Part shown: piece by piece, positions 50,631-52,243 of the stretch
Layout of the letters: the number at the start of each line of letters is the position of its first letter
Numbering within the stretch: position 1 is the first letter of the stretch
From: a phage
Strand: one strand, 5' to 3'
Sequence record: PZ583738.1
DNA length: 64,000 nt
Notes under the pieces: generated by a model
Told to the model about the DNA's origin: nothing
What the model saw: the letters and a program-made list of their open reading frames with translations, nothing else
Database searches by the model: none
Translations under genes and position numbers: made by a program

Positions 50631-51596
50631 ATGATGTTAGTTATTGGTTCTCGTGCATTACATAACGCTGGTCTGATTGAAAGTCAGAAAATTGAAAACT
50701 CTGATTGGGACTTTATCGCTGACCAAGGCTCCTGGAACCACTTTAAAGCACGTATGTTCGGTGCTCATGTTCCTGTGGATAACCCTAACGTCCAAGCTTT
50801 TAAATGTATGTACAATGGCAAAGAAACCTATTTTGAAGCTTATATTGTCCGTGCCCTGACCAACGTACGAGAAATTACTGGTGAGCTTCAAGACGAAGAT
50901 TTCACCTCAAGTTATCGTCTCCTGAAATATGCTGAAAATCATATTAAAAAAGATCGTCTTACAGGTTTTTACTGGGCAACTCCTGATATTTGTCTGGCAA
51001 TTAAATTATCTCATCGTTACCTGAAGAACAATCCATTCTTCCTGAAGACCATGAGTCATATTAATTACCTTCGCAATAAGGGTATTGTTCTTAATGATGA
51101 ACTGCAGAAAATCATGCTGCAGCGTCAGGCAGAGACACTGTCATACAGTCACCCTAAACTAGACGTGGGCAAGAAAACTTTCTTTAATGATACAATCTAT
51201 ACCCTTGACCATGACTCCATCCACGAGGCCGTGGCGCTTGCTGATAAGCCTGCATATAAGTTCTATATGAAGGATGATTCAGAAGTCATGACCTCGCGTG
51301 AAAAATTTGAAGCACTCCCTGATGTTATTAAACTGGCAGGGGTTTATGAAGAAGCATGTGTGCTCGCTCTGGAGCGTTCGCAGGTTCCTAATGAGTTCAA
51401 TATCTCTCCATCCGTGAGCTTCCATATTGCGCTGGAAAAAGTCTGCACCTCCATTACGTCTGGATGGTTTCGCACCTTCGCATATGAAAATTACGGCAAA
51501 ATTATAAGTATGTATAATGCTTTAGGTCATGACGATTATATTAAACGTTTTAAGGCTAACCAGCATTTAATTAAACCATTCAAAAAGGATGAATGA
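50631..51596 (+). CDS. nucleotidyltransferase-fold protein (Pol-beta-like NTase motif at N-terminus)
   Basis: 321 aa; VIGSRALHNAGLIESQKIENSDWDFIAD fits the G-S...D-x-D minimal nucleotidyltransferase signature; remainder helical. Confidence 0.5.
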   Translation: MMLVIGSRALHNAGLIESQKIENSDWDFIADQGSWNHFKARMFGAHVPVDNPNVQAFKCMYNGKETYFEAYIVRALTNVREITGELQDEDFTSSYRLLKYAENHIKKDRLTGFYWATPDICLAIKLSHRYLKNNPFFLKTMSHINYLRNKGIVLNDELQKIMLQRQAETLSYSHPKLDVGKKTFFNDTIYTLDHDSIHEAVALADKPAYKFYMKDDSEVMTSREKFEALPDVIKLAGVYEEACVLALERSQVPNEFNISPSVSFHIALEKVCTSITSGWFRTFAYENYGKIISMYNALGHDDYIKRFKANQHLIKPFKKDE

Positions 51597-52243
51597 TGGG
51601 AAGACCATTAGAAGATTTGACTGGTAAAATTATTAATGGAATCAAATTTGTTTCGGTAGCATATAAAACCGCTGGAGTTTCTACTAAATGGAATTGTATT
51701 TGTCATTGTGGTAAAGAGTTTGTCACAGCCGCCGCTCGTATAAAATCAGGTAAAACCAAATCATGCGGCTGTCAGAAATATCATTATTCATTTATTTCTG
51801 ACAAACCTACGTATTCATCGTATGCTGCCATGATTGAAAGGTGTACAAATCCTAACCATCATCGTTGGAAGCAGTATGGTGGCGCTGGTGTACAAATATG
51901 TGATAGGTGGCTACCAAAGGGAAAAACTGGTTATTTGAATTTTGTTGAAGATATGGGTATTCGTCCAGCAGGTACAAGCATTAATCGGATAAATTCATGT
52001 AAGCTATACAGTAAAGAAACTTGCGAATGGGCTTCATCATCAATACAGTCATTTGACCAGGATACCCGAAAAGATTCACCTGGTCCAATTACAGGTGTCA
52101 AGTTTAGAAAAGACAGAGGTAAATGGATATCATATATTACTGTTAATCATAAAGAAATCCAACTTTACTATGGTGATTCTCGCGACGAAGCAATAGAAAG
52201 ACGACGCACCGCTGAATTGAAATATTATAATAGACAAAAATAA
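51593..52243 (+). CDS. zinc-ribbon plus AP2-domain DNA-binding protein (homing-endonuclease-associated type)
   Basis: 216 aa; CICHCG...SCGCQ cysteine cluster; C-terminal ITGVKFRKDRGKWISYITVNHKEIQLYYGDSRDEAIERRRTAE resembles AP2 DNA-binding domains common in phage homing endonucleases; no clear catalytic motif. Confidence 0.5.
   Translation: MMGRPLEDLTGKIINGIKFVSVAYKTAGVSTKWNCICHCGKEFVTAAARIKSGKTKSCGCQKYHYSFISDKPTYSSYAAMIERCTNPNHHRWKQYGGAGVQICDRWLPKGKTGYLNFVEDMGIRPAGTSINRINSCKLYSKETCEWASSSIQSFDQDTRKDSPGPITGVKFRKDRGKWISYITVNHKEIQLYYGDSRDEAIERRRTAELKYYNRQK

Follow-up and report, generated by a model that had tools for sequence, protein, structure and literature searches.

A PacI-like middle domain between CapR-type and AP2 modules: a candidate free-standing homing endonuclease gene in a T4-like coliphage

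Introduction

The free-standing homing endonucleases of T4-type phages cut a conserved gene next to their own; the endonuclease gene is then copied in, together with the DNA that separates cut site and insertion (PMC2988022, PMC10448857). Here we analyse a 216-aa open reading frame (ORF) of PZ583738.1, a phage DNA stretch of 64,000 nucleotides that we call the window. We propose that it is a free-standing homing endonuclease gene with a beads-on-a-string build, in which a PacI-type middle domain would be the cutter; we regard this proposal as moderately probable. It is built on the observed domain anatomy, fold similarities, residue conservation, presence or absence of the gene, identity boundaries and insertion position. 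Residues are numbered as in the 216-aa ORF, whose parts are as follows.

51593-52243, plus strand: ORF of 216 aa, with a TAA stop at 52241-52243; its start is probably the second ATG, at 51596
51608-51778, plus strand: CapR-type zinc DNA-binding module, residues ~6-62, recognised by Cys35, 37, 39, 58 and 60 and by similarity to the homologue P0080
51800-52072, plus strand: middle domain, residues 70-160 (91 residues), a putative catalytic domain of the PacI-like, His-less type
51974-52060, plus strand: beta-beta-alpha core of the middle domain, residues 128-156, placed by its gapless register with PacI and the invariance of R132 and Y139
Key codons in this core: N131 (51983-85), R132 (51986-88), Y139 (52007-09), T143, E145 (52025-27), Q152 (52046-48) and D155 (52055-57)
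52085-52228, plus strand: AP2-fold DNA-binding domain, residues ~165-212, assigned by fold

R.PacI (PDB 3ldy/3m7k; His-Me group 20, PMC5714182) is an HNH-superfamily enzyme without the catalytic His, in which a Tyr of the inter-strand loop takes over; its metal ion is held by one Asp and one Asn (PMC5714182, PMC4081073). The 216-aa protein has in common with it the beta-beta-alpha core, an Arg replacing the catalytic His, a Tyr eight residues past the first ligand position and the N/T-x-R/E-x-A spacing to the helix ligand. R.PacI differs in being a homodimeric, 8-bp restriction enzyme with two Cys4 zinc sites and neither CapR nor AP2. The 216-aa protein, for its part, has a helical N-terminal half of the domain with conserved C84, C103 and C144, and its ligands would be Asn/Gln (plus E145/D155) where PacI has Asp/Asn; the similarity in sequence is marginal.

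The HNH_3-AP2 endonucleases (I-HmuI group; Xanthomonas phage HNN-AP2; ICP1 IPA-HNH) are likewise encoded by free-standing phage genes and place a beta-beta-alpha nuclease before a C-terminal AP2 domain (PMC2248197, PMC10448857). They retain D-H...N...N, and Pfam HNH_3 recognises them, whereas the 216-aa protein reads N-R...T...Q, has another N-terminal domain half and no Pfam match.

In phage homing endonucleases, CapR modules serve as zinc-finger-like units for DNA binding; such modules have also been domesticated as repressors (PMC8096241, PMC10448857). The CasPR proteins resemble the 216-aa protein in having both DNA-binding modules, in the same order and with the same five-Cys pattern; in CasPRIB1 the five cysteines were shown to be essential for function (bioRxiv 10.64898/2026.02.23.707548). 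In CasPRs, however, the modules are joined by helical linkers without any beta-beta-alpha domain, and the proteins act without cutting DNA. They are found in anti-CRISPR loci of Bacillota prophages, whereas the 216-aa gene belongs to the e.2-e.4 region and shows homing-type population behaviour.

In its genetics the gene is closest to mobA-E and segA-G of T4: intergenic insertion between conserved genes, sporadic distribution, co-transfer of flanking DNA and inferred cleavage in a conserved neighbour gene, away from the insertion point (PMC2988022). The nucleases themselves differ: the Mob proteins carry the canonical HNH motif and the Seg proteins belong to the GIY-YIG type. We rejected as relatives both the T4 Mob proteins, which are described with well-defined HNH motifs (PMC2988022), and Hef of phage U5, which was described earlier as a 'unique' homing endonuclease of T4 type but is Vsr-like. 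Free-standing phage genes have been grouped before, by HHpred, into a class called "PacI-like" (PMC12724721); the Skunavirus 'PacI-like HNHE' genes of that work are likened to ours by description, and are not reported with CapR or AP2 modules.

Taken together, the 216-aa protein lies outside the canonical HNH and HNH_3 groups. It resembles the PacI type in two signature residues and in its fold, and not in its metal ligands or zinc sites.

Results

The middle domain resembles PacI

The structural model of the full-length protein has a predicted local distance difference test score (pLDDT) of 89, which rises to 95 for the middle domain modelled alone. In the model this domain opens with a helical half (TYSSYAAMIERC...YGGAGVQICDRW...FVEDMG) and continues as a beta-beta-alpha unit: a predicted strand at residues 129-132, a loop, a second strand at 144-147 and a helix at 149-155, with pLDDT >90. 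Among 48,164 PDB chains, the top structural match of the middle domain is PacI, and its nearest structures include PacI, DraIII and CAD. As modelled, then, the domain shows the beta-beta-alpha-metal fold.

In sequence the resemblance is faint. Neither hmmsearch with the middle-domain profile nor phmmer with the whole protein gave anything against PDB sequences except, at most, chance matches. A single alignment comes from hhalign, which places SINRINSCKLYSKETCEWAS onto GVDRSDSFEGYSPQNARLAC of PacI (E 0.0085). A profile built from 399 domain copies reaches E 0.004 against PacI, a score that 1 of 200 shuffled PacI sequences equals; the PacI sequence used was checked against the PDB. The resulting register is gapless and sets R132 on PacI R93, Y139 on Y100, N131 on D92, T143 on N104, E145 on R106 and Q152 on N113. 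In terms of the D-H...N...N/H motif, the canonical His position is held by R132 and the two Asn positions by T143 and Q152.

Scans of the ORF with Pfam, NCBIfam and PADLOC matched nothing meaningful; in particular, the H-N-H pattern was not found in the 216-aa protein, and neither HNH, HNH_3 nor any other Pfam or NCBIfam model matched it. A literature search for its motif YGGRGI found nothing relevant. The separate lines that link the middle domain to PacI are each weak to moderate and are mutually consistent; we consider it likely that the domain is a His-Me finger of the PacI type.

A first-pass annotation of the ORF had seen no obvious nuclease motif in it. This stands as far as H-N-H is concerned, but the PacI-like middle domain had been overlooked. 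Owing to that domain, the choice that the annotation left between a domesticated regulator and a divergent nuclease now leans towards the nuclease, with the regulator the less likely of the two.

Residue conservation suggests a catalytic role

R132 and Y139 are two of only five positions that are invariant in 57 aligned domains. Across the 399 domain copies, position 132 is Arg in 391, and position 139 is Tyr in 370 and Phe in 28; position 152 is Q, N or H among the aligned domains. The exchange of Tyr for Phe is unevenly spread: it affects 28 of 317 copies from multi-copy proteins and 0 of 81 intact single-copy proteins, a contrast that rests on two differently sampled protein sets and is to that extent a point against our proposal. 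Every multi-copy protein retains at least one copy with both Arg and Tyr. A catalytic hydroxyl would be expected to show such a pattern.

Positions 131 and 145 co-vary, holding either D with R/K or N with E; the pairs D+E and N+R/K are absent from the 25 most frequent residue pairs listed for the 399 copies. Positions 151 and 155 swap E..N for a hydrophobic residue..D. Because of this covariation and this swap, acidic side chains near the site appear to have been relocated rather than lost, and E145 and D155 may compensate for the missing PacI ligands. From the strand register together with the covariation, residues 131 and 145 would be cross-strand neighbours near Y139 and Q152.

A protein whose middle domain did not cut would be a sequence-specific DNA-binding protein on a domesticated homing-endonuclease scaffold, serving as a repressor or a site protector; the middle domain would do no more than add a third surface for DNA contacts, in the manner of the Smad MH1 domain. 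There are precedents for this scheme, which we regard as plausible but less likely than a nuclease. CapR+AP2 proteins without a nuclease domain are proven DNA-binding transcriptional silencers (the CasPRs, bioRxiv 10.64898/2026.02.23.707548), CapR is itself a domesticated endonuclease module (PMC8096241, PMC10448857), and His-Me fingers that lost catalysis yet kept DNA binding are known (PMC5714182).

Several properties of the domain fit the same scheme or weigh against a nuclease. The canonical His is gone. The metal ligands of PacI, an Asp in strand 1 and an Asn in the helix, are not present either, N131 and Q152 standing in their place: the subfamily has Asn at PacI Asp92, Thr (T143) at Asn104 and Gln at Asn113, and across the family position 131 is variable (D, N, G, H, E or T). 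The two Cys4 zinc sites of PacI were not found in the middle domain, which is without CxxC pairs and whose conserved Cys are limited to C84, C103 and C144. The domain often occurs in 2-4 tandem copies per protein, an arrangement more usual for DNA-binding repeats. Finally, no report of cleavage by phage members of the family was found in the literature, and of the two genes reported as active in lactococcal phages neither is the one PacI-like gene that was tested in vivo (PMC12724721).

Against a nuclease-dead protein speaks the invariance of the equivalents of the PacI catalytic Arg and Tyr, the Tyr hydroxyl being lost only where another copy keeps it. An acidic residue is likewise kept through compensated swaps. 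Unlike accessory DNA-binding modules, the middle domain never accompanies another nuclease domain: the 135 multi-copy family members that were scanned contain no other known nuclease domain, only helix-turn-helix, NUMOD1 and CapR. It also sits in the slot of HNH_3 in related proteins, as seen in P0069 and P0078, which have the same CapR...AP2 frame with a canonical HNH_3 in the middle and align with the 216-aa protein from end to end. The CasPRs lack the middle domain and come from a different setting, the anti-CRISPR loci noted above. A regulator would, moreover, leave unexplained the sporadic distribution of the gene, the recently transferred block in which it lies and the linked divergence of the end of its neighbour gene, all described below.

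The middle domain defines a large family

At E<=0.001 the middle-domain family comprises 128,949 representative clusters (50% identity). PHROGs labels it "HNH endonuclease", and no model in Pfam or NCBIfam covers it. In the wider family the D...Q form predominates. We put forward, tentatively and as something that may well prove otherwise, that the middle domain provides the catalytic core for a large uncurated family of His-less, Tyr-dependent beta-beta-alpha homing endonucleases in phages and bacteria, of which the AP2-linked subfamily would be a working variant with moved metal-binding carboxylates (D131 to E145, E151 to D155). The 216-aa protein would in that case be a handy T4-like model of a major class of homing-endonuclease active site that has gone unrecognised.

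Many bacterial and phage proteins among P0101-P0250 have 2-4 tandem middle domains, interleaved with helix-turn-helix tails and CapR modules. Gaprivervirus genomes hold, at another locus, a second and distant paralogue made of a middle domain and AP2 without CapR (~31% identity); an example is Escherichia phage MN01 127498-127914, and VR7 also has a second place. This paralogue occurs also in a phage without the gene at the 51593-52243 locus. Within the window itself no second copy of the middle-domain family was found.

Two DNA-binding modules flank the middle domain

Residues 6-60 are 49% identical to residues 131-185 of the homologue P0080 (E 7e-14), which is the very stretch of P0080 that matches Pfam PF21817 CapR (E 2.8e-8). 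The PF21817 model gives no direct match to the 216-aa protein, so the link to CapR is transitive through P0080. The cysteines form the pattern CxCxC...CxC (C35, C37, C39, C58, C60), which equals C33/35/37/56/58 of CasPRIB1. Across an alignment of 37 sequences, conservation is >=90% at C37, C39 and C58; at position 35 Cys is in the majority, and C60 is retained in those rows of the alignment that were printed. Judged by these similarities, the cysteine cluster appears to be a CapR-type zinc DNA-binding module and not a decayed nuclease motif.

At the other end of the protein, the AP2 region has a three-stranded antiparallel sheet packed on a C-terminal helix, and AP2 is the sole domain matched when the protein is searched against the PDB with Foldseek. 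Pfam PF00847 AP2 does not match the 216-aa protein at E<=10. The same model matches 7 of the 37 homologues at E<0.01, with scores in the per-protein tables of 17-32.5 bits, under the 33.3-bit gathering score of PF00847.

Both ends of the protein thus agree with the first-pass annotation, which had described an AP2-like C-terminal domain and an N-terminal Cys cluster lacking His-Asn-His: the former is seen as a fold and in the Foldseek match even if not by PF00847, and the latter as five cysteines without any HNH-type Pfam or NCBIfam match. The two results named there as contradicting it were a complete HNH domain and a lack of AP2 similarity, and we found neither.

The ORF is a gene of VR7-type phages

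Checks of the frame and its translation found the ORF as first annotated. Its product is 99% identical to VR7 gp135, its DNA is 99.4% identical to the gene of phages VR7, VR26 and 212, and 100 protein homologues were returned by the search. T4-type lysozyme, nudE and e.2 genes are just downstream, so the setting is the e.2-e.4 region of a lytic T4-like coliphage. The 216-aa ORF is a real gene of a T4-like coliphage of the VR7 (Gaprivervirus) type.

The true start is probably the second ATG, at 51596 (MGRPL...), because the homologues and the annotation of phage 212 begin with MGR... and because this ATG overlaps the upstream stop codon as TGATG. We detected neither a promoter nor a terminator belonging to the ORF, and the T4 late-promoter motif TATAAATA was not found near it. 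The ORF seems to share its transcript with the upstream gene, to which its translation also appears to be coupled.

The gene lies in a transferred block at a precise insertion point

The surroundings of the ORF contain four further features.

50631-51596, plus strand: upstream gene with DUF7277 and DUF7275 (Pfam E 1e-73 and 2e-26), the inferred target gene
51471-51592, plus strand: last ~120 nt of the upstream gene, a carrier-linked allele and candidate region for the target site or for target-site immunity
52258-52283, plus strand: hairpin with a 10-bp stem (folding free energy, dG, -17.3 kcal/mol; z -2.0), which marks the right edge of the insertion
52303-52989, plus strand: downstream gene of 228 aa without family match, strongly mosaic

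In a set of 444 phage records with shared flanks, the gene is present in just 5, which belong to VR7, VR26 and phage 212, some as duplicate records. Most close relatives, among them TH44, RZ and VR20, are gene-less: their flanks are contiguous, and the gap runs exactly from the end of the upstream gene to the stop of the ORF. Carrier and gene-less forms share the sequence 3' of this stop, including the hairpin and the ribosome-binding site in front of the next gene. The hairpin has no T-run and hence is no intrinsic terminator of the usual kind.

The block 51498-52243 has 3-4 mismatches against VR7 and phage 212, and its flanks are 78-96% identical. Identity of the downstream gene switches right at its start: over 52303-52989 it is 78-79.5% with the carriers VR7 and phage 212 and with SP18, and 96.5% with the gene-less TH44. 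Because the block is nearly identical to the carriers and the next gene is closer to gene-less TH44, there is, as read from these identities, a recombination boundary at the 3' end of the ORF.

On the other side, the end of the upstream gene is linked to the insert. The segment 51471-51592 exists in two forms, ~73% identical, with 24 of 38 codons different and a guanine-plus-cytosine (GC) content of 0.30 in the carrier form against 0.41-0.44 in the gene-less form. From 51498 onward it is 100% identical to VR7 and phage 212, and at >=95% identity this allele occurs in the 5 carrier records only. GC content is lowered to 0.31-0.37, with 0.37 for the ORF itself, against 0.40-0.43 in the surroundings. 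To judge from these alignments, the gene shows two marks of a free-standing homing endonuclease gene: an intergenic insertion that is precisely present or absent, and an apparently co-converted flank.

Two observations temper this, and count against our proposal. Presence or absence with mosaic flanks is seen also for non-nuclease genes in the hyperplastic region, and in phages of the SP18/JS10 type the slot holds an unrelated ORF of 75 aa instead (L005, SP18, 4027-4251). Because of this unrelated ORF, the slot is a hot spot for different inserts.

The gene could be a homing endonuclease gene that is defunct or in decay and travels only through ordinary recombination in the hyperplastic region, or through trans-homing by another endonuclease. 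Trans-homing of a defunct endonuclease gene is documented in T4, for I-TevIII with MobE (PMC2790892), and the acceptance of an unrelated ORF by the slot fits as well. So do the existence of a frameshifted allele (P0013) and the presence of other endonuclease genes near homologues, such as an HNH_3 gene in L006. Selection points the other way. None of the 5 carrier records has a broken ORF, and diverged lineages keep it whole as well; compared with four diverged homologues the proportion of nonsynonymous differences (pN, 0.17-0.33) is far under that of synonymous ones (pS, 0.63-0.92) in each of the three domains; pN and pS are given since synonymous sites are saturated and a proper dN/dS is not computable. 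By this comparison all three domains are under purifying selection, which makes a defunct gene less likely. The subfamily-specific substitutions are themselves conserved, and the window contains no other endonuclease gene of the middle-domain family. All in all, we find a defunct gene improbable.

P0013 is a metagenomic homologue of 180 aa, a frameshifted and truncated copy with 76% identity over its first 63% and unrelated sequence thereafter; it is a decaying allele, of the kind that a selfish endonuclease gene should produce in the course of its life cycle. The HNH_3 gene in L006 (5065-5601) is canonical and lies two genes downstream of P0003. Upstream of P0011 there is a 396-aa protein with two CapR modules and DUF723 (L011 1-142).

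The insertion point recurs outside the close relatives of VR7. Homologues 56-68% identical begin within a few bases of the stop of the DUF7275 gene in Dhakavirus vB_EcoM_005 and in three types of metagenomic phage contigs, and their downstream neighbours differ. Such a fixed insertion by one conserved gene across diverged lineages, together with the linked allele of the gene end, points to a local target. It thereby speaks against an active nuclease whose main role is something other than homing, for instance excluding competing phages or cutting host DNA, which we rate as very improbable. That role would suit the closest structure, a restriction enzyme, and the RefSeq label of VR7 gp135, 'restriction endonuclease'; free-standing T4 endonucleases also cause marker exclusion (PMC2988022). 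Three DNA-binding or recognition modules, however, suit a long homing-type site and not a short restriction site, and PADLOC gave no match.

A tandem array elsewhere in the window

Apart from this locus, four small ORFs of 96, 93, 70 and 74 aa lie in tandem at 49325-50346 on the plus strand. They have a common C-terminal motif, W-[VH]-[SP]-S-S-x-x-C, and end in ...GAWVSSSAMC, ...GGWVSSSSEC, ...TSWVSSSYEC and ...KIWHPSSC. From these sequences they look like an array of tandem paralogues with a conserved C-terminal tag.

Discussion

We favour a free-standing homing endonuclease gene because its distribution, the transferred block, the linked allele and the position match those of T4-type free-standing endonuclease genes. 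From the observations set out above we infer catalysis, metal binding, a target site and homing, which may be assembled into the following scheme.

The CapR-type module and the AP2 domain would read the DNA sequence, and residues 70-160 between them would cut it, as a beta-beta-alpha-metal (His-Me finger) domain of the PacI type. R132 would replace the general-base His, and Y139 of the inter-strand loop would activate or provide the nucleophile. A single metal ion may be coordinated by N131/E145 and Q152/D155, in the role that D92 and N113 have in PacI. A cut or nick would be made in the gene-less allele, within or beside the 3' end of the DUF7275 gene. The target may lie at or just past the strongly conserved coding stretch ...KVCTSITSGWFR, near 51440-51500. 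In a mixed infection, repair from the carrier genome would then copy in the block 51471-52243, that is, the divergent gene end and the endonuclease gene.

Thousands of phage genes are called "HNH endonuclease" or "restriction endonuclease" on the strength of an uncurated domain whose putative catalytic residues are unlike the name. The CapR, PacI-like and AP2 modules could serve the engineering of specificity. If the protein is nuclease-dead, it is a further case of homing-endonuclease parts reused as DNA-binding regulators, here in a lytic coliphage. If it is active, the tyrosine-type chemistry of PacI would extend from a rare restriction enzyme to widespread mobile phage genes, and these would gain a T4-like representative that is easy to work with and has an evident candidate target in the 3' end of the DUF7275 gene.

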